From an uncultured Gemmatimonadales bacterium (GTDB lineage Bacteria > Gemmatimonadota > Gemmatimonadetes > Gemmatimonadales > GWC2-71-9), in contig CAVSQW010000011.1 of NCBI GenBank assembly GCA_963730185.1, positions 22,184 to 86,183 of the forward strand: 64,000 bases of DNA. The letters are read 5' to 3'. The notes under the pieces were generated by a model. The model was not told where the DNA came from and did no database searches. It was given only the letters and a program-made list of their open reading frames with translations. How positions within the stretch are numbered: position 1 is the first letter of the stretch; every line of letters begins with the position of its first letter. The position numbers and the translations under genes were made by a program. Of the stretch, positions 4,696 through 48,652 are shown one piece after another.

Positions 4696-6476
4696 GCGAG
4701 CCGATCCAACGCGCCGCCGGGCCACCCGGTCTCCGGGTCGGGTGGAGCACCCTGGTGCTGGCCGCCTTGGCACTGGCCGGGCTCGGCCGGCCGGCTCGGG
4801 CGCAGGATTCGCTGGTCGTGATCCGCCCGATCGTGACCGGGGCCGACACGATGGCGGCGGGCGCTCCGTCGCCGGAGGTGGTGCGGCGGGTCATCCGGGC
4901 GTTCAACGACAGCCTGGCCAGCCGCTTCGTCGGGAGCTTCCTGCTGCCGGCCGGGTCGCGACACATCGGCCAGATGGCCGTGTATCGAGGCAACCTCCGG
5001 GTGTACGGCCGGATCGACGGCGACGTGACGGTGATCAACGGCGACCTGATCGTCGCCTCGGGCGGCCTGGTCTCGGGGGACGTGCTGGTGGTGGGTGGCC
5101 GGATCGAGGTCCGGCCCGGAGGGATCATCGTCGGGCGCCGGGAGGAGCACGAAGGGCTGGCGCCGGTGGTGCGGGGGGTGAACGGGCTCCTCGCGGAACG
5201 CGAAGCCCGCAAGCCGCTCGGTGAGCTGGCCGCGGCGCGGACCACCTTCCAGGCCGCCGGGATCAAGACCACGCTGAACCTGGAGACGGGCAAGACCTAC
5301 AACCGGGTCGAGGGCCTGCCGATCGTCTTTGGCCCCACGTTCACCACCCAGGCCACGGTGGACGCCAAGGTCGACGTGCGGGGCATCTTCCGGCCGGCCA
5401 CCGACCGGACCAAGCTCCGGGACGACATCGGCTTTGTGGTGTCGACCGAGTTCTCCGGGGGCGGCCGGGCCCGCTGGCTGACCTTCGGCGGGCGCGGCTA
5501 TCGCCAGATCGTGCCGATCGAGGACCAGCCGTTGGCCCGGGGTGAGGCGGGATGGTCGGCGTTCCTGCTGCAGCGCGACTACCGCGACCACTACGAAGCT
5601 CGGGGGATCGAGGGCTTCGCCTCGGCTCGACCGGCCAAGGGTGTCGCACTCGGCTTCTCGTTCCGGGGTGACCTGGAGCGATCGGTCCCGGCCAGCGACC
5701 CGATCTCGATCTTCCGGAACAGCGACACCTGGCGCCCCAACCCGCTGATCGACGACGGGCACTACCGAACGGCCCGGTTCACCCTGGACCTCGACTCGCG
5801 GAACGACCAGCGGCGGCCGGCGGCCGGGTGGCTGATCCACGCCCAGCTGGAGCACTCGACCAGCAGCGACGCCTCGCCGGTGGCACTGCCGCCGGAGGTC
5901 CGGTCGCCGCTGCCGCCGGGCGGGTTGGCCTTCTCGAAGCTCTGGTTCGACGCCCGGCGTTACGCCCGGTTCAATCCGACCAGCCTGGCGAGTCTTCGGG
6001 TCGTGGGCGGTGGCTGGATCGGCGGCGACCCGCTGCCGGTCCAACGCCGGGTGTCTCTGGGCGGCCCCGACATTCTGCCGGGCTTCGGGTTCCGAGACCT
6101 GAACTGCGGCCCGGCCGGCTTCGTGGATCAGGCCCGCGCCTCACTGTGCGACCGGATGCTGGCGGTGCAACTGGAGGTGCGGACCAACTTCCCCGTCAAG
6201 CTCCCGTTCCGCCTGGTCCCGCCCGACGTGGCGGTGCTCCAGCAGGTGCTGGGCATCGAACAGGCGGAGCTGGTGATCTTCGGCGACGCCGGGAAGGCCT
6301 GGCTCACCGGCGCCGGGCCGGGCCGGGTTCCCAACAACCGGATCCCGGTGTTGGGGGAGTGGGACGCCGACGCCGGGTTCGGGATCGACACCGGCGGGCT
6401 CGGCCTCTACGTGGCCAAGGCACTCACGGCCGACCAGCCGATCCGGTTCATCATCCGGCTGCAGCAGCGATTCTGA
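4692..6476 (+). CDS. Secreted protein with a bactofilin-like beta-helix segment and an Omp85/surface-antigen-like beta-barrel
   Basis: GTG at 4692 overlaps the regulator stop (GTGA), which makes the upstream 478 codons of track ORF 3258..6476 spurious. Signal-like WSTLVLAALALAGLGRPARAQ. Repetitive GDVTVINGDLIVASGGLVSGDVLVVGGRIEV. The barrel-like C-terminal half ends IIRLQQRF, an aromatic terminus typical of OMPs. Confidence 0.65.
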   Translation: MSEPIQRAAGPPGLRVGWSTLVLAALALAGLGRPARAQDSLVVIRPIVTGADTMAAGAPSPEVVRRVIRAFNDSLASRFVGSFLLPAGSRHIGQMAVYRGNLRVYGRIDGDVTVINGDLIVASGGLVSGDVLVVGGRIEVRPGGIIVGRREEHEGLAPVVRGVNGLLAEREARKPLGELAAARTTFQAAGIKTTLNLETGKTYNRVEGLPIVFGPTFTTQATVDAKVDVRGIFRPATDRTKLRDDIGFVVSTEFSGGGRARWLTFGGRGYRQIVPIEDQPLARGEAGWSAFLLQRDYRDHYEARGIEGFASARPAKGVALGFSFRGDLERSVPASDPISIFRNSDTWRPNPLIDDGHYRTARFTLDLDSRNDQRRPAAGWLIHAQLEHSTSSDASPVALPPEVRSPLPPGGLAFSKLWFDARRYARFNPTSLASLRVVGGGWIGGDPLPVQRRVSLGGPDILPGFGFRDLNCGPAGFVDQARASLCDRMLAVQLEVRTNFPVKLPFRLVPPDVAVLQQVLGIEQAELVIFGDAGKAWLTGAGPGRVPNNRIPVLGEWDADAGFGIDTGGLGLYVAKALTADQPIRFIIRLQQRF

Positions 6477-39221: not shown

Positions 39222-39809
39222 ATGAGCCCTCAGTCCACCGCCCTGCCGCCTCTCGCGTCCCTCGACCCGCTCGCCGAGCGGCTCTATCAGGCCCGCACCA
39301 TCCTGATCAGCGGGGAGATCAACCAGGCCCTCGCCGCCGACGTCACGGCCCAGCTGCTGGCCATGAGCGCCGAGAGCGACGCCCCGATCACTCTCTACAT
39401 CAACTCGCAGGGCGGCCACGTCGAGGCCGGTGACACCATCCACGACATGATCCGGTTCATTCGGCCGGAAGTGCGCGCCGTCGGGACGGGATGGGTCGCG
39501 AGCGCGGGCGCCTTGATCTACGTGGCGACGCCCCGCGAGCGTCGCTACTGCCTCCCCAACACCCGCTTCCTGTTGCACCAGCCGGCCGGCGGGGCGGGCG
39601 GCGCGGCGGCCGACATCGACATCGAGGCCCGGGAGATCATCCGGATGCGGGAGCGGTTGAACCGGATCTTTGCCGCGGCCACCGGACAGTCGGTGGAGCG
39701 GATCCAGGAGGACACCCACCGCAACTTCTGGCTCGACGCCGAGGCCGCGAAGAGCTACGGACTCGTGGGCCAGATCATCCAGACGTCGGCCGAGCTCCCC
39801 GCCGGCTGA
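39222..39809 (+). CDS. clpP: ClpP-family protease subunit with a Ser-His-Asn triad variant
   Basis: An ungapped alignment from memory to B. subtilis ClpP runs from LYINS to YGL. Ser (VASAG) and His (LLHQP) are conserved, and Asp172 aligns to Asn (DTHRNFW versus DTDRDNF). Confidence 0.85.
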
Positions 39810-39853: not shown

Positions 39854-41224
39854 ATGCACCGGCGGAGCTTCGTTCAGGCCGGGGTCCTGGCCGCTGGGGT
39901 GCCGGCACTCCGGCTCTTCCCCAGACTCGTTCCCCCGGCCCCACGCGCCCTCCCCAGCCCCGCCCAGCTCCGGTGGCAGCGCGACGAGCTGGCCCTCTTC
40001 TGCCACGTCGGCGTCAACACCTTCACCGATCGCGAGTGGGGGGACGGCACCGAAAGCCCCGCGCTCTTTGATCCGCCGGCCCTCGACACCCGGCAATGGG
40101 CCCGCGCCGCAAGCCGCGGCGGCTTCCGCGCCATGATCCTCACCGCCAAGCACCACGACGGCTTTTGCCTCTGGCCCACCAGCACCACCGGGCATTCGGT
40201 CGCGGCCAGCCCGTGGCGCGGCGGGCAGGGCGACCTGGTCCGTGAATTCGTGGACGCCTGCCGGGCCGAAGGCCTTCGCGCGGGACTCTACCTCTCGCCC
40301 TGGGACCGGAACCATCCGGCCTACGGCGACTCGCCCCGCTACAACGACGTCTACGCCGAGCAGCTGACCGAGCTTCTGACCCGGTACGGCCCGATCGCCG
40401 AGATGTGGTTCGACGGCGCCAACGGCGAGGGTCCGAACGGGAAGCGGCAGGAGTACGACTGGCCCCGCTTCTTCGGCCTGGTCCGCCGCCACCAGCCGGA
40501 GGCCGTGATCTTCTCCGACGCGGGGCCGGACGTGCGGTGGTGCGGGAACGAGCGGGGCGAGGCCGGTGACCCAAATTGGTCGCCGGTCGATCCGGCCGCC
40601 GTTCCAGCTCCCGGCGCCACCGGGGACGGCGTCGACGCCGCGCTCCAGCACGGCGACCCATCGGGGTCGGTCTGGCGCCCCGCCGAGTGCGATGTGTCGA
40701 TCCGCCCGGGCTGGTTCCACCATCCGGCGGAGGACGACCAGGTCCGGCCGGTGGACGACCTGGTCCGGCTCTACCTCACCTCGGTCGGCCGGAACGCCAA
40801 GCTCCTCCTCAACGTGCCGCCGACCCGTCGGGGCCTCCTGGCCGACCCGGACGTCGCTCGCCTGGCGGCGTTTCACGACCGGCTGGCCGACCGCTTCGCG
40901 ACCGACCTCGCGGGCGCAGGCCAGCTCCGCTGGCACCGGACCAGCGCCCGGACCGGGATCGCGGAGCTAACCCTGCCGAAGGCGGTGGCGGTCGATACCC
41001 TGCGGCTGGAAGAGCGAATCGAGCGGGGGCAGGCGGTCGCCCGATTCGTCGTGCAGGTGTCGACTGGGAGCGGCTGGACCACCCTGACCGGCGGCACGAC
41101 CATCGGATCCGCCCGATTGCTCGAGGTGCCCGCCACCCCGATCCGGCGGCTCCGGCTGGCCGTGATCGACGCCGCCTGGCCGCCGCTCGAGCCCCGGATC
41201 CGCCTCTACGGTCCCGCCGCGTAG
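39854..41224 (+). CDS. Alpha-L-fucosidase (GH29) with a C-terminal F5/8-type-C-like domain
   Basis: The ATG at 39854 gives a Tat-like signal, MHRRSFVQAGVLAAG. The catalytic region reads AKHHDGFCLWPT...YLSPWD...MWFDGANGEG. Confidence 0.85.
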   Translation: MHRRSFVQAGVLAAGVPALRLFPRLVPPAPRALPSPAQLRWQRDELALFCHVGVNTFTDREWGDGTESPALFDPPALDTRQWARAASRGGFRAMILTAKHHDGFCLWPTSTTGHSVAASPWRGGQGDLVREFVDACRAEGLRAGLYLSPWDRNHPAYGDSPRYNDVYAEQLTELLTRYGPIAEMWFDGANGEGPNGKRQEYDWPRFFGLVRRHQPEAVIFSDAGPDVRWCGNERGEAGDPNWSPVDPAAVPAPGATGDGVDAALQHGDPSGSVWRPAECDVSIRPGWFHHPAEDDQVRPVDDLVRLYLTSVGRNAKLLLNVPPTRRGLLADPDVARLAAFHDRLADRFATDLAGAGQLRWHRTSARTGIAELTLPKAVAVDTLRLEERIERGQAVARFVVQVSTGSGWTTLTGGTTIGSARLLEVPATPIRRLRLAVIDAAWPPLEPRIRLYGPAA

Positions 41225-41304
41225 TTGGTCCTGCTTGACCCAGCCCCGGCCCTCCCGCCATCCTCAACCATGATCATTCGTCCCGCCGAGGGCCCGGCCC
41301 GCCG

Positions 41305-41958
41305 ATGAGCGCCGTCTTCCTGATCGACGCCGTGCTGTTCGACATGGACGGGGTGTTGGTGGACTCACGGGCGGTGATCGAGCGCACCTGGCGCCGCTGG
41401 GCCGAGCGCCATGACCTCGACGCCGACCGGCTCTTCCGAGCCGTCCACGGCCGGCGGACCAGCGAGGCGCTGGCCGACATCGCGCCGGCGATGGACATCA
41501 AGGCCGAAACGGCCTGGCTCGACGCCGCCGAAGTCGACGATCTGGAAGGGATCACGGCGATTCCCGGTGCGCTCGACCTGGTCCGGGCGCTACCCGAGGA
41601 CCGGTGGGGCGTGGTGACCTCGGCCGGGCTGGAGCTGGCCCGCCGACGGCTTCGGGCGGCCGGCCTCCCGACCGAGCCCGCGGTACTGATCACCAGTGCC
41701 GACGTCGAGCGCGGCAAGCCGGCGCCCGACGGCTACCTCCAGGCCGCCGGCGATCTCGGGGTTCGACCCGGCGACTGCCTCGTGTTCGAGGACGCCCGGC
41801 CGGGGATTGCCGCCGCCAAGGCGGCCGGCGCGCAGGTCGTCGCGATCACCACCACGGCCCCCAGCGCCGAGCTCCGGGCCGCGGATGTGGTGATCGACGA
41901 CCTCCGGCGGGTGAGGGTCGACCGCGAGGCCGACCAAATCGTGATCCGGATCAGGTAG
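41305..41958 (+). CDS. HAD-superfamily hydrolase (beta-phosphoglucomutase-like)
   Basis: DAVLFDMDGVLVDS (DxDG), VTSA, and KPAPDGY...FEDARPGIAAAKAAG. Confidence 0.85.
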   Translation: MSAVFLIDAVLFDMDGVLVDSRAVIERTWRRWAERHDLDADRLFRAVHGRRTSEALADIAPAMDIKAETAWLDAAEVDDLEGITAIPGALDLVRALPEDRWGVVTSAGLELARRRLRAAGLPTEPAVLITSADVERGKPAPDGYLQAAGDLGVRPGDCLVFEDARPGIAAAKAAGAQVVAITTTAPSAELRAADVVIDDLRRVRVDREADQIVIRIR

Positions 41959-42118
41959 CCGAGGCCTACTCCACCACCGATCACCACCGCGACGACCCGA
42001 CCGGGCTGATCCGCCTCTCCCGGCACGGGCGGGCCGAGTTGGCCGAGCTGCTGGAAGGTGCCTGGCGGCGGATCGCCTCGAAGCGACTCGTGGCTCGGCC
42101 AGATCGCCCCGACCCGGC

Positions 42119-42922
42119 CTAACGACCGGCCGGCACCGGCGGACGGCGCCCCGGACGGGCGGCGAATCTCTCCGGCTGCCGGCGGAGGCTGGGCGGCAAG
42201 GCGACCAGCGTCGGCTCGACCCGCTCGACCGGCGCCACCAGCCCGGCGTGCCGGAGCGCAGCCTCCATCACCCACTCCCAGCCGAGCCGCGCCCGGAACC
42301 GGCGGACGCTCACCCCCAGATACCGACGGGTCCACGATCGGAAGGTGCGGACGCCCACCCCGGCCCGCCAGGCGAGGACGTCGACCGATGCGTCGTCGAT
42401 CGTCGCCGCCACCCGGGCCAGAGTCCCCACCGCCCGCCAGCAGTGCGCCGTGAGCGGTCCGAAACGACGGAGCCGATCCCGGATGGTCCGCCCGGGGATC
42501 GCCTCGCTGATCGGCACGTCGACCGGGCGGGCCATCAGCAACGCAAGCTCCGCGCGGATCTCGGCTCGCCCCGTTCGGCGAACCACGTAATCGGCCAGGT
42601 AGCCGCTCCCGGGGACCACCCGGGACCGGACCGCCGTCGTGACCCGATCGGTAAGCTGCCGGACCGCAATCGGGCCCGGGGTAAAGCACAGCTGCCCGGG
42701 AAGCGAATGAATGGCGCTCAGAACGGCCGGGTCCGCGGTGCCGGCCGTGGCGACCAAGCAGAGCGTGCACCAGGGAGCCCGCCTGAGGAGCTGCGCCGAC
42801 TCCCCCCCGATCGCCTCGACCGACTCGGCCTCGACCACCGCGATCGTTCCCAAGGGCGGAAGATCGTGGATGAGGCCATCGACCACGTGGTAGGGCGGGG
42901 TCAGCAATCGGATCCGAGGCAT
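42119..42922 (-). CDS. Hypothetical regulator with a C-terminal AraC-like helix-turn-helix
   Basis: The C-terminal VDVLAWRAGVGVRTFRSWTRRYLGVSVRRFRARLGWEWVMEAAL resembles the second HTH of AraC-type regulators. It is divergent from the lasso cluster. Confidence 0.5.
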   Translation of the reverse strand: MPRIRLLTPPYHVVDGLIHDLPPLGTIAVVEAESVEAIGGESAQLLRRAPWCTLCLVATAGTADPAVLSAIHSLPGQLCFTPGPIAVRQLTDRVTTAVRSRVVPGSGYLADYVVRRTGRAEIRAELALLMARPVDVPISEAIPGRTIRDRLRRFGPLTAHCWRAVGTLARVAATIDDASVDVLAWRAGVGVRTFRSWTRRYLGVSVRRFRARLGWEWVMEAALRHAGLVAPVERVEPTLVALPPSLRRQPERFAARPGRRPPVPAGR

Positions 42923-43231
42923 CGATTTGAGCGGGGTCCCGTGGATCGCAAGGCTCAGGCGTTTGGCGAGGATTGGCGTCGGATCCTGCGTCCCAGCCAG
43001 CGAGCGGAGAGGGTACGACTCGAGGGCCCTGCCGTCAAGGCGTAAGTCACGACAGCATCACACGATAGGGCCATTCGGCCCTGGTCGAAAAACGACCGGC
43101 GACAAAGGGAAGGAAACGGCAGGAACTCGCCCGAACGTGTCCTTTCGGCCGGGTCGTGCGTTTCGCAGGTTCAACCCACTCGAAGGGCGTCGGATCTTCG
43201 ACCCAGTGGGGACTGAGGGGGGACAGCCGCG

Positions 43232-43543
43232 ATGCGATTTCCTTGGAGCAACACCCGAACCACGACGGTCCCGGACGCCCGCACCCGCTGGCAGCCCACC
43301 ACCGACGTGACCAGCGCGGTCCACGGCGATCGGACCGTGCTGATGGATCTCCGGTCGGAACAGTTCTTCACCCTCGACGACGTCGGCGCGCGGATTTGGG
43401 AGAGCCTCGGTCGCACGGCGACGGTGGACGAGATCACCGCGTCCCTGGTCCAGATCTACGACGCCCCGGCCGCGGAGGTCCGCCGCGACGTCGAAGCCTT
43501 CGTCGCGGACCTGAGCCGCGACGGCCTGATCTGCGAGGCCTGA
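43232..43543 (+). CDS. Lasso peptide biosynthesis PqqD-family chaperone (B1 / RiPP recognition element)
   Basis: GDRTVLMDLRSEQFFTLDDVGARIWESLGRTATVDEITASLVQIYDAPAAEVRRDVEAFVADLSRDGLI, a PqqD-like winged-helix pattern. Confidence 0.85.
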   Translation: MRFPWSNTRTTTVPDARTRWQPTTDVTSAVHGDRTVLMDLRSEQFFTLDDVGARIWESLGRTATVDEITASLVQIYDAPAAEVRRDVEAFVADLSRDGLICEA

Positions 43544-43544
43544 G

Positions 43545-43934
43545 GTGAGTTCACGCGGTCCCGGTCCGGTGGTCGCCGTCGCGACCCTCGCCCTGACTCG
43601 GTCGAGCCTCCGCTTCCTCGGGTTCCGGCGGACCCTCCGTCTGGTGCGTTGGGCCGCCGGCCCGGCGACGAGGCCCCGGCGCGGCACGGTCGAGCGCGGC
43701 GCCCGCTCGGTCGCGGTGGCGGCGGCGTTCTTTCCCGGCCGAGCCGTCTGCCTGGAACAGTCCCTGGCGCTGTATCTCCTCCTCCGCCGCCGCGGGCATC
43801 CAGCCGTGCTCAAGATCGGGGTCCAGCCGTATCCCTTCGAGGCCCATGCCTGGGTGGAGATCGACGGCCGCCCCGTATTCGAGAACGAGGATGCGCTGAG
43901 CAAGTACGTGCCCTTCCCGGGAGCGTTCGCGTGA
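43545..43934 (+). CDS. Lasso peptide leader peptidase (B2, transglutaminase-like cysteine protease)
   Basis: CLEQSLALYLLLRRRGHPAVLKIGV...EAHAWVEIDGRPV supplies the Cys/His/Asp triad context. The GTG start lies 1 nt after the B1 stop. Confidence 0.85.
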   Translation: MSSRGPGPVVAVATLALTRSSLRFLGFRRTLRLVRWAAGPATRPRRGTVERGARSVAVAAAFFPGRAVCLEQSLALYLLLRRRGHPAVLKIGVQPYPFEAHAWVEIDGRPVFENEDALSKYVPFPGAFA

Positions 43935-45817
43935 ACCCGTTCGTCTGCGCCATCGACCTCCGGGGCGCCCCGATCGGCCTCTCGGCTCTGGATCCGGCGC
44001 TCCCCGGCCTGACCCGGGGCGACGGACGCCCCGAGCTCGTCCTGAACGGCTGCTGGGGAGGCGCCTGGGCGCCGTCGCCCCTTGGCCGTCCGCTGGCCAC
44101 CCGACGGCAGGGCACCATCGCGATCGGTACCGCCCGGCTCTCCAATCGCGAGGCGCTGGCCGGTCTGCCGGCCGACCGGCTGGCCCCGCTCACCGACCTC
44201 GACCTGGTCGTCGAACGGTATCTCCGCCGTGGTCCCGAGGCCGTCGCGGATCTGGTCGGCGACTTCGCGTTCGTCCTCTGGGACGAGCAACAGGCCCTGC
44301 TCCTCGCGGCCCGCGACGCCCTCGGCGTCAAGCCGCTCTACTGGCAGCAGCGGGGCAGCACGCTGCTGGTGGCCTCCCACGTCGAGTGCCTGGATCAGGG
44401 CAGCTACGACCGGAGCTACATAACCCGGTTCGCCATGGCCCAGGTCGGGCCCGCCGACGCGACGGTGTACACCAACGTCAAGCGGGTCGCCCCCGGCTCC
44501 TACCTCCTGGCACGGGGTCCCAAGGTGTCGACCGAGCAGTACTGGTCGCCCTGGACCTTCCGGGCGGGATCGGCCGGCGACGATGTCGAGGCCACGGTGG
44601 CCGAGTTCCGGGGCCGGTTCGACGAGGCAGTTCAGGCCCAGCTCGACGATCGACGCGACACCTGGGTGCTCCTCTCGGGCGGGCTCGATTCGTCAGCGGT
44701 GGTGGGCGCCGCGAGCCGGCTGGCCGAGCGGGACTTGGTTCGGCCGCTGGCGGGCACGGTGACCGTGGTCGACTCGCTCGCCGACGGTGACGAGACCCGT
44801 TACTCCGACGCGGTGGCCCGGCGGTGGGACCTCCGGAACGAGCGGATCCACGACTTCTGGGCCTGGCAGCCCGACCCGGACGCCACCGTGGCACTGGCCG
44901 AGCCGCGCCACTTCCTCCCGTTCTTCGCCCGGGACCGCGCCCTTTGCGGTGCGGTGCGGAGCCAGGGCGGCCGCGTGCTCCTCAGCGGCTACGGCTCAGA
45001 CCAGTATCTGAGTGGCAGCTTCGACTATCTCGCCGACCTGGTCCGGACCCGGCGGACCCGGGAAGCCATGGCCGAACTGACCCGGCTGGCCGTTGCGACT
45101 CGACGCTCATTCTGGGGGCTGGGAATGACCCACGCGATCGCGCCGATTGCCCCGGGGTGGCTGGCCCGGCGGATCCAGGGCCCGGCCCAGCGGCCCGCCT
45201 GGGTGCTGGGCGACGTGCCTCCGGTGGTGTCCCCCGAGGACCTCCGCCGGCTCCGCGAGGAGCACGGGGTCTACGGGAGCCAGGTAGCGGCCGAGGTGGC
45301 CTGCACCGACCTGCTGCTCGAGCGAGGCGTATTCGAGCAGGGGCTCGAGATGCGCTACCCGTTCCTGCACCGGCCGCTGGTGGAGCTGGCACTCCAGCTC
45401 CCCGTGAACCTCCGGATGCGCCCCGGCGCCAAGAAGTGGATTCTGCGGGAATCGTTGCGAGATGTCCTACCCGAGGCGATCCGCACCCGGCCGGGCAAAG
45501 GCGGGATCGACGGCCGAGTCCTCTGGTCGCTCCACCACGAGCGCCGGCTGCTCCGCCGGCTGATCCTCGACTCCCATCTCGCCGACCTGGGCTGCGTCGA
45601 CCGACAGGCGCTGGCCGAAGCCTTCGATCGGGCCGCCGCGGGACAGACGGGTGACGTCACCCGGCTCTTCTTCACCCTTTCTCTCGAAACCTGGCTGGCC
45701 GTCCGTTCCGGGTGGTGGGCGGCCAACGCTTCACGATTGCAGTCCCGGAGTACTCCGTCCTTCTCGTCGCAGTCAACTCAAAAGGAGCAGCACTATGTCG
45801 AAGCTTCAGTACACTAA
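43931..45817 (+). CDS. Lasso peptide cyclase (C, asparagine synthetase B-like)
   Basis: The GTG at 43931 overlaps the B2 stop (GTGA). GDFAFVLWDEQQALLLAARDALGVKPLYW, the PP-loop LLSGGLDSSAVV, and RMRPGAKKWILRE. Confidence 0.9.
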   Translation: MNPFVCAIDLRGAPIGLSALDPALPGLTRGDGRPELVLNGCWGGAWAPSPLGRPLATRRQGTIAIGTARLSNREALAGLPADRLAPLTDLDLVVERYLRRGPEAVADLVGDFAFVLWDEQQALLLAARDALGVKPLYWQQRGSTLLVASHVECLDQGSYDRSYITRFAMAQVGPADATVYTNVKRVAPGSYLLARGPKVSTEQYWSPWTFRAGSAGDDVEATVAEFRGRFDEAVQAQLDDRRDTWVLLSGGLDSSAVVGAASRLAERDLVRPLAGTVTVVDSLADGDETRYSDAVARRWDLRNERIHDFWAWQPDPDATVALAEPRHFLPFFARDRALCGAVRSQGGRVLLSGYGSDQYLSGSFDYLADLVRTRRTREAMAELTRLAVATRRSFWGLGMTHAIAPIAPGWLARRIQGPAQRPAWVLGDVPPVVSPEDLRRLREEHGVYGSQVAAEVACTDLLLERGVFEQGLEMRYPFLHRPLVELALQLPVNLRMRPGAKKWILRESLRDVLPEAIRTRPGKGGIDGRVLWSLHHERRLLRRLILDSHLADLGCVDRQALAEAFDRAAAGQTGDVTRLFFTLSLETWLAVRSGWWAANASRLQSRSTPSFSSQSTQKEQHYVEASVH

Positions 45818-45908
45818 GCCGAGCGTCACCAAGGTCGGCCCCGTGGTCGTCAAGACCGAGGGCTACTGGACCGGGTTCAACATGGAGCTCATGAGCCTCC
45901 GTCCGTAA
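45795..45908 (+). CDS. Lasso peptide precursor (A), 37 aa: MSKLQYTKPSVTKVGPVVVKTE / GYWTGFNMELMSLRP
   Basis: AAGGAG (45782-45787) lies 7 nt before the ATG. The leader fits YxxPxLxxxGxxxxxTx exactly in spacing (Y6, P9, V11, G15, T21). The core starts with Gly and has its only acidic residue at position 9. It sits inside the longer track ORF 45651..45908. Confidence 0.8.
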   Translation: MSKLQYTKPSVTKVGPVVVKTEGYWTGFNMELMSLRP

Positions 45909-45948
45909 GCTGACCAAGGTTCGGGGGCGCACCAGCGCCCGCGGCCAC

Positions 45949-45985
45949 GACCCCCGTCCGCCTCCCAAAATGGCGGCCGGGGGTC
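45949..45985 (+). terminator. GC-rich hairpin after the precursor gene
   Basis: GACCCCCGTCCGCC (45949-45962), a 9-nt loop, then GGCGGCCGGGGGTC (45972-45985). Thirteen of 14 positions pair. Followed by cgtcgTTTG. Confidence 0.5.
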
Positions 45986-46051
45986 CGTCGTTTGCATACC
46001 CGGTTGGCTCAGGAGATACCCTGAACCGATCGATTGTCCTAAATTCGAACA

Positions 46052-48652
46052 GTGGAATCCACCTCCCCACCCGACGCGGGGCCCGGGCCCCCTCCCGCCC
46101 TGGCTATTCCTGAGGCGCCAACCGGCCGTTCCTGGCTGACCTACTGGTGGCGCCACGACGGCTGGGTCGCGGCGCTGGCCGTCGTGGTCGTGGCGATCGT
46201 CGAGTTGGTCCCGCGTCCTCTTGGTCGGCCGGGGCAGCGTCCCGGCCTGTTGGTGTACCTCGCGCCCGTCCTGACCGCGTTCGCCATCCTGATTTGCTGG
46301 TTGCGGGCCGCCCGCGCCGCCAAGGGCGATCGGGCCATCCGGCTGGTGACCCGCACCGGCGTGGTGACCACGGCGGCCGCCGCGGTCGGGGTGCTGCTGC
46401 TTCAGTCGCAGAACGTCGCGCTCGGCCTCGGTCGGCAGCCGGTCGGTGTGCTGATCCTGATCAGTTCGATCCTGATCCTCCTCGAAGGTCCGCTCTGGGT
46501 CGTCGCCATCCTAGTGTGGCCTCCCCGCGAGCGGCAGCGTGAAACCGGCTGGTACGTCGCGTTGGACGTGGCGATCATGATCCTCGCGACCAGTGCCGTA
46601 TTCTGGTATGCCCAGGTCCGGATTACCCCAGACCCGACCAACGCACCGCCCAACATCCATGCCGTCGTCGTGATCTGGGCGATCATGCTGCTGGGCCTCA
46701 GCGTGGCCGTCCTCCGAGGCTCGATTGCCCGATACGAACTGGCATTCCGCCTCTTGGTCGGCGCGCTGGTGGCCACCTTTTTCGTCAACTTCGCCCTGAC
46801 CGTCTTCAACGCTGCCACGGCACTGGAACTCGTCAATACGCCCGTCCTGGTAGCCGGCGTCGCCCTCCGCATCGCCGGCGCCGAGGCCATCCGGCTCCGC
46901 CTTCCACTCCCGGGCGCCCCCGGCGAGGGCACCCACCGGAGCCCGCTCCCGTGGGTCGCCGTGCTGGCCATCGGCGTGCTCGCCTTCCGCCTGGCCATGA
47001 CGGAGCACGACAGCGGCCTCGGCCCGGTGGTGCTGATCACCCTCTGCATCACCGTCCTGCTCCTCCTTCGCCAGTCGGTGGTGATGCGCCAGAACGCCCG
47101 GCTCCTGGCCGAGCGGGCCCAGCACGAGGCCGACGCCCGGATCGCGGCCCTGGTCCGGCACACGTCCGACGTGATCCTGATCGCCGATCAGTCGCTCCGG
47201 GTCCGCTTCGCGTCACCGTCGGCGGAGGGACTCTGGGCCGGTGATCCGGCCCGGATCCTCGGGCTCGAGGTCGGCGAGCTGGTGGATCCCCTGCAGCGGG
47301 TCGAGGTCGAGCGAGCGCTCGCCGAGCGGCTGACCCGGCCCGGGCAGAGTGCCACCACCCGCTGGCGGATGCTCGGCGTCGAAGGCGACTGGCGGAAGAT
47401 CGAAGCCGTCATCACCAACCTGTTGCATGAGCCGTCGGTCGGCGGGGTGGTGTTGACGCTCCGCGACCAGACCGAGCGCGCCGACCTCGAGGAACAGCTT
47501 CAGCAGGCCCAGAAGATGGAGGCGATCGGCCAGCTGGCCGGCGGGATCGCCCATGACTTCAACAACCTGCTCACGACCGTGTTGGGGCACAGCGAGCTCG
47601 GGCTCGACTCCCTCGAAGCCGGTCATCCGGTCCGGGCTGATTTCGAGCAGATCAAGCGGGCGGCCGAGCTGGCCGCGGCGCTCACCAAGCAGCTGCTCGC
47701 CTTCAGCCGGAAGCAGCTGATCGAGCCCACCGCCATCGACGTGGCCGAGTCCATCCCCAAGATCGCCGGGTTGCTCAAGCGGCTGATCGAGGAGCGGATC
47801 CGGACGGTCATCGAGGTCGCGCCCGACGTGGGGATGGTCCAGATGGACCCGTCCCAGCTCGAGCAGGTCATCATCAACCTGGCCATCAACGCCCGCGACG
47901 CGATGCCGCACGGCGGCTCGCTCACCATCCGAGCCCGCCGCGAACAGGTGACGAGCGAGCTCACCGGCGTCGTGCCGGTCGCGCCGGGCGACTATCTGGT
48001 CATCGACGTCGCCGATACCGGCGTCGGGATCGACGCCGCCACCCAGGCCCGGATCTTCGAGCCCTTCTTCACGACCAAGCCCCCCGGCCGGGGCACCGGC
48101 CTCGGGTTGGCGAGCGTCTATGGCGTGGTGAACCAGAACAAGGGCGGCCTCCGGCTGAAGAGCGCACTCGGCCAGGGCAGCACCTTCTCGGTGTACCTCC
48201 CGGCCCTCAAGGAAGGCGCCGATCTCCCGGCCGTCCCGACCGAGCCGCGACGCCCCGGCATGGCCGATGCGCTGGTGCTCCTGGTCGAGGACGAACCCTG
48301 GCTCCGCGACATCGCCTACAAGGTCCTGACCCGCGAAGGGTACCGGGTCATGGTGGCGGGCGACGCCGCAGAGGCCCTGGTCCAGGCCGCCCGCTCCACT
48401 GAGGCCATCGACCTCCTGCTCACCGACGTGATCATGCCCGGGATGAGCGGCCCCAGCCTGGCCGCCCGGCTCCGAAGCGACCAGCCCAGCCTCCGAGTGC
48501 TCTTCATGTCGGGCTACGTCGCCGCCGACCTCGGGGGCGAGCTGGGGCCCGCCGACCAGCTGCTCCGGAAGCCGTTTACACCTTACGTGATGCTCGAGGC
48601 CGTCCGGGCCACCCTCGACGCACCGACTCTGCCGGCCCCGCCCACGCCTTGA
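46052..48652 (+). CDS. Hybrid sensor histidine kinase / response regulator with a large polytopic N-terminal membrane domain
   Basis: About 8-10 TM helices in the first ~330 aa, then a PAS-like region. H-box [10 protein letters not shown], HATPase GTGLGLASV, and a C-terminal [16 protein letters not shown]...[12 protein letters not shown] start. Confidence 0.9.

Follow-up and report, generated by a model that had tools for sequence, protein, structure and literature searches.

A probable class II lasso peptide precursor of an uncultured Gemmatimonadales bacterium and its family

Fusilassin, also called fuscanodin, of Thermobifida fusca (TfuA/FusA, TfuB1, B2 and C) and cellulassin are products of lasso systems in which the B function is split over two proteins, B1 and B2. 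A YxxPxL motif and a Thr at position -2 are the published hallmarks of the leader peptides of such split-B systems (PMC6784204). Natural rings comprise 7-9 residues, with Trp1-Glu9 rings in fusilassin and cellulassin (10.1101/2020.11.25.399105). Lasso clusters of the Gemmatimonadota have only been counted by automated mining (PMC11316326), and no characterised lasso peptide from this phylum turned up in our literature search. Here, we analyse a stretch of 64,000 nt from contig CAVSQW010000011.1 of an uncultured Gemmatimonadales bacterium, in the following called the window (G+C content 70%), and describe a 37-codon gene at 45795-45908 on the plus strand. As judged from sequence comparison, this gene very probably encodes a class II lasso precursor (A) and forms the last gene of a B1-B2-C-A operon. 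The B proteins are split as in the systems named above, and the leader carries both published hallmarks.

The precursor, its enzymes and its family

The gene starts with an ATG at 45795 and ends with a TAA stop at 45906-45908. Its first 23 nt lie inside the open reading frame (ORF) of the cyclase, which stops at 45817, and a Shine-Dalgarno sequence, AAGGAG (45782-45787, plus strand), is separated from the ATG by a 7-nt spacer. The translation product of 37 aa, MSKLQYTKPSVTKVGPVVVKTEGYWTGFNMELMSLRP, divides into a leader peptide of 22 aa (45795-45860, plus strand), MSKLQYTKPSVTKVGPVVVKTE, and a predicted core peptide of 15 aa (45861-45905, plus strand), GYWTGFNMELMSLRP. Leader residues Y6, P9, V11, G15 and T21, i.e., Y-17, P-14, V-12, G-8 and T-2, show exactly the spacing of the lasso motif YxxPxLxxxGxxxxxTx. 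The core opens with G23 (codon 45861-45863), is free of Cys as expected of class II (no disulfide bonds), and has E31 (45885-45887) as its sole acidic residue. It thus combines a small first residue, Gly1, with Asp or Glu at position 7, 8 or 9, here Glu9, and a Gly1-Glu9 isopeptide ring is predicted; Arg14 of the core is encoded at 45900-45902. An initial annotation, made from the letters of the DNA, had already given the start codon, its distance from AAGGAG, its place in the cyclase ORF, the leader motif and the composition of the core, and all of these proved exact on re-reading and translation. Its hand-computed mass of the dehydrated core (1782.82 Da, 2+ ion at 892.42) was correct as well. 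By recomputation, the linear core has a mass of 1800.833 Da and the dehydrated core of 1782.822 Da, with [M+H]+ at 1783.829, [M+2H]2+ at 892.418 and [M+3H]3+ at 595.281.

Comparison with known lasso leaders, which the initial annotation had proposed as a check, gives matches in register with both curated and structurally solved leaders. The NCBIfam model lasso_leader_L3 matches precursor residues 6-25 (E 0.014) and 42 of the 53 members of the precursor family described below (best E 7.3e-5); a cyanobacterial lasso model is also matched by 14 of the 53. When the family profile was compared with all PDB chains, only two matches were obtained. One is the TfuA leader (6JX3_A, E 8.7e-4), whose alignment runs residue by residue over Met1-Thr21; the other is the TbiA-alpha leader (5V1V chain C, E 0.84). 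Both chains were crystallised bound to their own B1 and are experimentally validated lasso leaders.

Within the window, the pattern Y..P.[LIVM]...G.....T. occurs once in six frames, namely at the precursor. The chance baseline, 200 first-order Markov sequences of the same composition, gave a mean of 0.025 matches per window, and none of the 200 combined the pattern with a small first core residue and an Asp or Glu at core positions 7-9. The precursor is the only candidate ORF of this kind within 41000-47500; a precursor located upstream of B1 was considered and rejected, as the single motif match and the single candidate coincide at 45795-45908. In the codons outside the cyclase overlap, the ratio of nonsynonymous to synonymous change (pN/pS) against the related loci L002, L003 and L084 (locus numbers are ours) is 0.15-0.34, and the precursor frame is therefore under purifying selection.

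The genes for B1, B2, cyclase and precursor lie tightly packed on the same strand and show translational coupling. B1 (43232-43543, plus strand, 103 aa) is a PqqD-like leader-recognition protein, or RiPP recognition element (RRE; RiPP: ribosomally synthesised and post-translationally modified peptide), with a Pfam PqqD match of E 4.6e-19. Among proteins of solved structure, it comes closest to the lasso RREs TbiB1 (5V1U, E 3e-6) and TfuB1 (6JX3_B). B2 (43545-43934, plus strand, 129 aa) is a transglutaminase-like leader peptidase, which reaches 100.8 bits with NCBIfam lasso_biosyn_B2 (cut-off 33) and E 1.1e-27 with Pfam Transglut_core3. The Cys in its AVCLEQS, the His in its AHAW and the Asp in its EIDG segment are predicted to form the catalytic triad. 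The lasso cyclase C (43931-45817, plus strand, 628 aa), an asparagine-synthetase-like macrolactam synthetase, matches Pfam Asn_synthase (E 1.2e-41) and GATase_7. It starts with the GTG at 43931, the only in-frame start near the B2 stop, and overlaps that stop. Its SGGLDSS PP-loop is invariant in an alignment of 35 sequences. Approximately 990 relatives of the cyclase were found, and those with names all come from metagenome-assembled genomes labelled Gemmatimonadota, Gemmatimonadales or Longimicrobium, which points to an uncultured member of this phylum as the most likely source of the window. A leader peptidase (B1 plus B2) and an Asn-synthetase-like cyclase thus adjoin the precursor, and the PqqD and Asn_synthase matches pass the Pfam cut-offs. 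A simple promoter scan found no sigma-70 promoter.

Together with its homologs, the precursor makes up a family of 53 short proteins. A profile search contributed 51 of them (51 clusters of proteins with 35-49 residues), and two come from the exact-sequence cluster. All named or inspected contigs of the family are metagenomic and belong to Gemmatimonadales or Longimicrobium. In the alignment of all members, M1, Y6, G15, T21, G23, E31 and R36 are invariant, Pro9 and Thr12 nearly so, and core positions 2-8, the ring interior, are highly variable. Conserved leader and ring-forming residues together with a variable ring interior are the pattern expected of a RiPP precursor. T21, G23 and E31, which the initial annotation had named as key residues, are thus the same in 53 of 53 members. 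The reading frame, whose conservation in orthologous loci it had proposed to check, is kept in L002, L003, L084, L004, L086, L088, L089, L090 and L091; cyclase identity, where determined, is 47-76%. Both outcomes favour the interpretation given in that annotation. In L004 (cyclase 51% identical), the precursor homolog begins 2 nt past the cyclase stop. Homologs occupy the matching place in L086 (cyclase 48% identical), in L088 and in the Longimicrobium locus L087 (cyclase 45% identical), and upstream of those in L084 and L088 an AAGGAG-like or GAAAGGAG Shine-Dalgarno sequence is present. The order B1-B2-C-A recurs in nine related loci and the 23-nt overlap in six, including L090 and L091. As a further observation on this overlap, precursor codons 1-8 (45795-45818) are nearly identical DNA in the window, L001, L002, L003 and L084. 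One base differs in L002 and one in L003, and no other difference was seen, which suggests a dual-coding or translational-coupling constraint.

The related loci were collected in several ways. A scan of genome contigs with a single cyclase sequence gave no matches, and the same scan with a cyclase alignment (generic patterns) returned mostly distant Asn-synthetase-like loci and one close relative, L004. The distant loci were reused as a control set for gene order. A metagenome scan with five precursor sequences confirmed one locus among 183 pattern matches, tblastn being weak on 37 residues. In the loci compared, 43 ORFs bear the leader motif, and 33 of them directly follow the cyclase on its own strand; 13 of these 33 are loci of the family itself, and the other 20 come from distant phyla, including Acidobacteriota, Cyanobacteria, Nitrospira and haloarchaea. 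Placement of the precursor after the cyclase is thus common and not special to this family. Two motif-bearing precursor ORFs beside one cyclase were seen in L005 (2384 and 2550), L020 (6040 and 6369), L027 (5927 and 6087) and L050 (3138 and 5871). These double-precursor loci include a Gemmatimonadaceae metagenome-assembled genome, a cyanobacterium and the haloarchaeon Halosimplex salinum.

The initial annotation called the precursor hidden and expected gene callers either to miss it or to call an ORF of 85 aa instead. This was overstated. Gene calls with exactly this 37-aa product exist in four source collections, NCBI, ENA, JGI and Logan, where it is nameless or a 'hypothetical protein', and two close variants are found on JGI metagenome contigs; in all these records the gene overlaps the cyclase end likewise. 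It is unnamed because the NCBIfam lasso-leader model gives it 15.4 bits at a cut-off of 19. The L086 homolog, MTYTKPTVTKIGNITQKTEGGWNWQDIEVLSKRGCGSGN at 5848-6000, is uncalled in the NCBI record GCA_046160105.1, so some family members are indeed missed by annotation pipelines.

Ring, loop and lock of the predicted product

Modelled on the established lasso pathway, maturation would proceed in three steps. PqqD-like B1 would bind the leader via Tyr-17, Pro-14 and Val-12. The cysteine protease B2, guided by Thr-2, would cut after Glu22 and free Gly1. The ATP-dependent cyclase would adenylate the Glu9 side chain and join it to the Gly1 amine. The outcome would be a 9-residue (29-atom) macrolactam around the pre-threaded tail of a 15-residue peptide of 1782.822 Da. 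In the most likely topology, Leu10-Leu13 would form the loop, Arg14 the lock below the ring and Pro15 a stub of one residue. Cleavage site, ring and lock are predicted on good grounds, and threading is predicted with them.

As the core has no acidic residue other than Glu9, a ring can only join Gly1 to Glu9. The acceptor Glu occupies core position 9 in 38 family members, and the 15 members of Longimicrobium type have it at position 8. This one-residue difference in ring size is due to an indel inside the ring, and the spacing from Glu to Arg is fixed at 5. Counted from the Glu, the family shows L, V, I, F or M at offset +1, M, I, F, L, W or Y at +2, S, N, T or G at +3, and K, F, L, R, V, M or Y, never G, A, S or P, at +4; offset +5 is always Arg. 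Past the invariant Arg, every member has at least 1 and at most 14 residues; eight members, including the peptide of the window, have exactly 1. Four relatives carry one Cys in the tail.

The initial annotation had doubted that so short a tail could be sterically locked. It is true that only six residues follow Glu9, but the concern is smaller than it appeared. Known lasso peptides go down to 3 residues in the loop and 2 in the tail (PMC12214591), five in sum, and the six residues past the ring therefore fit. The annotation also overlooked the invariant Arg (core R14), likely the best candidate for a steric lock. Residue 13 and Arg14 may straddle the ring, with Arg14 as the putative bottom lock and Pro15 as a minimal stub. 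A literature search for Arg15 of capistruin as a precedent of an Arg lock found nothing, and it is not used as evidence.

Several points weigh against a threaded class II lasso peptide as the product of this locus. Support for it comes from sequence, and product, threading and activity are predictions. The lasso-specific NCBIfam matches of B1 (lasso_PqqD_Strm, E 3.8e-13) and of the cyclase (lass_lactam_cya, E 9.4e-62) lie under the cut-offs of their models, as does the leader score of the precursor itself. According to domain annotation, no ABC exporter, immunity gene or isopeptidase adjoins the cluster of the window. A Glu9 ring is not unprecedented; with 29 atoms, it is of the largest natural size, and lihuanodin unthreaded of its own accord once a 9-residue ring had been enlarged to 29 atoms (PMC13352647). 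Most locks are aromatic; the candidate here is an Arg with a single residue below it, so a heat-labile or unthreaded branched-cyclic product is possible.

The precursor could accordingly be of true lasso type and be cleaved and cyclised, while the mature product is not stably threaded, i.e., is branched-cyclic or an easily unthreading pseudo-rotaxane. Arg14 would then fail to lock a 29-atom ring of this width with so few residues in loop plus tail: six residues follow the acceptor, and one follows the sole bulky polar candidate. In addition to the lihuanodin variant, some fusilassin ring variants are carboxypeptidase-sensitive before heating (10.1101/2020.11.25.399105). However, the invariant Arg at acceptor +5 and the bulky residue at +4 in 53 of 53 members argue for a selected lock pair, the same minimal tail is kept by eight independent family members, and the segment is no shorter than the known minimum of loop and tail (PMC12214591). 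We thus consider an unthreaded product unlikely.

Far less probable is a ring with an acceptor other than Glu9, or a core that starts elsewhere, with a different mass or topology. Some relatives have additional acids at core position 6 or 7 or carry a further Gly at position 2, which would permit other rings in those relatives. In the peptide of the window, however, Glu9 is the sole acid and Gly23 the sole Gly after Thr21, and of these candidate sites only the columns of Thr(-2), Gly1 and Glu9 (or Glu8) are invariant throughout the family.

That the gene is a chance ORF in a genome with 70% G+C, or that the true product is the 85-aa ORF at 45651-45908, the real precursor being located elsewhere or lost, is refuted for practical purposes: high-GC DNA is rich in spurious ORFs in all frames and the precursor taken alone stays under the NCBIfam cut-off, but its motif match is the sole one in the window against 0.025 expected and it is the sole candidate nearby, Met1 is invariant, a Shine-Dalgarno sequence precedes it in those relatives whose upstream sequence was read, and its frame is under purifying selection. 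The 85-aa ORF in particular was rejected, as its upstream part overlies the conserved cyclase C-terminus in another frame and L004, where the homolog starts past the cyclase stop, has no longer ORF.

Downstream elements and neighbouring genes

A GC-rich hairpin follows the precursor stop at 45949-45985 (plus strand); the fold of 45905-46000 has -57.1 kcal/mol and a z-score of -5.0. The hairpin recurs in L002, L003 and L084 with one compensatory pair. Directly 3' of it, CCGTCGTTTGCA at 45986-45997 is identical in the window and these three loci, although synonymous sites of the adjacent gene have diverged by 30-65%. The hairpin has no T-run, and a terminator scan of the simple T-run type did not flag it. 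It is probably an operon terminator, a processing signal or a transcript-stabilising structure. An Rfam scan of 42800-46200 gave sub-threshold chance matches only. Further downstream, the intergenic block 46012-46058, GGAGATACCCTGAAC...GTCCTAAATTCGAACAGTGGA, is nearly invariant in the window, L002, L003 and L084 and exceeds the adjacent coding sequence in conservation. It has no Rfam match. The start of the next gene is uncertain, and the block either closely precedes this start or covers it; it could be a promoter, an operator or an element of the 5' untranslated region.

This next gene encodes a hybrid sensor histidine kinase (46052-48652, plus strand; true start uncertain) with Pfam PAS, HisKA, HATPase_c and receiver domains. 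By hydropathy, approximately 10 hydrophobic segments lie in the first 340 aa of the window kinase, before PAS. The kinase is the next gene in every Gemmatimonadales-type locus with enough flank, i.e., in the window, L002 (915-3470), L004 (6136-8694), L086 (6697-8595), L088 (3754-6231), L089 (6964-8799), L090 (6411-8801) and L091 (6272-8785). In L084 it is broken into three frame-shifted pieces, and at the Longimicrobium-type locus L087 it is absent. By tblastn, the copies of L002, L004, L084, L086 and L088 are 50-84% identical to that of the window. Possible roles of the kinase are control of the operon or detection of the peptide. A bolder reading takes the peptide as the cognate signal of this multi-TM kinase and B1-B2-C-A-kinase as a self-contained lasso signalling module. 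It draws on the constancy of the kinase and on the lack of an adjacent exporter, immunity gene or isopeptidase in Gemmatimonadales-type loci, and we regard it as doubtful.

On the other side of the cluster, a divergent gene of 267 aa (42119-42922, minus strand) lies 310 nt upstream of B1. It has no Pfam or NCBIfam match, and its C-terminus looks, by eye, like a helix-turn-helix. A gene of 270 aa is found at the equivalent place in L084 and L085 and not in L004, L086, L090 or L091. A ClpP protease gene (39222-39809, plus strand) lies 3.4 kb upstream of the cluster, with fucosidase and HAD hydrolase genes in between. The lasso peptide lassomycin targets the Clp system; the ClpP gene of the window is probably a housekeeping gene. 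Known lasso isopeptidases belong to the S9 family. Serine peptidases of the S9 prolyl-oligopeptidase type lie near the related clusters of L089 (1-1519, plus strand) and L091 (8787-11033, minus strand), and one of S15 type near that of L086 (9383-9848, plus strand); no serine peptidase adjoins the cluster of the window.

Significance and comparison with known lasso systems

The data support a bona fide, uncharacterised class II lasso precursor, which founds a recognisable family within a well-known peptide class. Four core sequences of the family, including GYWTGFNMELMSLRP, were searched in the literature, and none was found. The analysis supplies a defined precursor with exact masses, and the alignment of its 53 members points to the acceptor Glu and to the likely Arg lock. 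From a structural point of view, the family is a natural experiment in tail shortening and suggests what the smallest architecture around a ring of the largest natural size looks like, which is of use in lasso engineering and to structure predictors. The constant kinase neighbour offers a lead, open to experiment, on the role of the peptide for its producers. Should the signalling reading hold, lasso peptides of an uncultured phylum would have a native function as cell-cell or autocrine signals; the peptide would in addition be the smallest known one with a 9-residue Glu ring and would have one Arg as its lock.

Predicted clusters from Acidobacteriota, Cyanobacteria, Nitrospira, Rokubacteria and haloarchaea (L005-L083) share the leader motif and have the precursor directly past the cyclase on the same strand. 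Their acceptors, as read from the listed cores, are Asp8, Asp9 or Glu8. Neither a Glu9 acceptor nor a conserved Glu-x4-Arg or a conserved kinase neighbour was seen in this sample.

Huascopeptin and the 15-residue sungsanpin/chaxapeptin group from Streptomyces are very small class II peptides that start with Gly1, as the present one does. Huascopeptin has 13 residues and thus six after its acceptor, which is again as here. It has been called the shortest lasso peptide, and its ring joins Gly1 to Asp7 (PMC7549694). These peptides close rings of 7 or 8 residues on Asp, whereas the predicted ring here has 9 residues and closes on Glu, and they stem from a different phylum. TbiA-alpha and TbiB1 of Thermobaculum terrenum are known from the leader-RRE complex 5V1V. 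TbiB1 is the closest solved structure to B1; both the leader and the B1 match are weak, and the core peptides are unrelated.

The fusilassin core has 18 residues and begins with Trp; the core described here has 15, begins with Gly and leaves six past the ring. As a candidate lock it has an Arg followed by a stub of one residue. A hybrid histidine kinase is conserved along with the locus, and the producer is an uncultured Gemmatimonadota-like lineage, in contrast to the Actinobacteria that make fusilassin. The two agree in the leader (Tyr-17, Pro-14, a hydrophobic residue at -12 and Thr-2), in the match of B1 to TfuB1, in the hydrophobic pair right after the acceptor, and in a Cys-free class II core with a Glu9 acceptor and a 29-atom ring (10.1101/2020.11.25.399105). 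In the two parts that were compared by sequence, leader and B1, the similarity is remote. Taken together, the locus is not a new kind of system and is otherwise a standard lasso cluster. It is mildly unusual in its constant kinase neighbour and in that the largest ring type is combined with a minimal post-ring segment and a Glu-x4-Arg signature.

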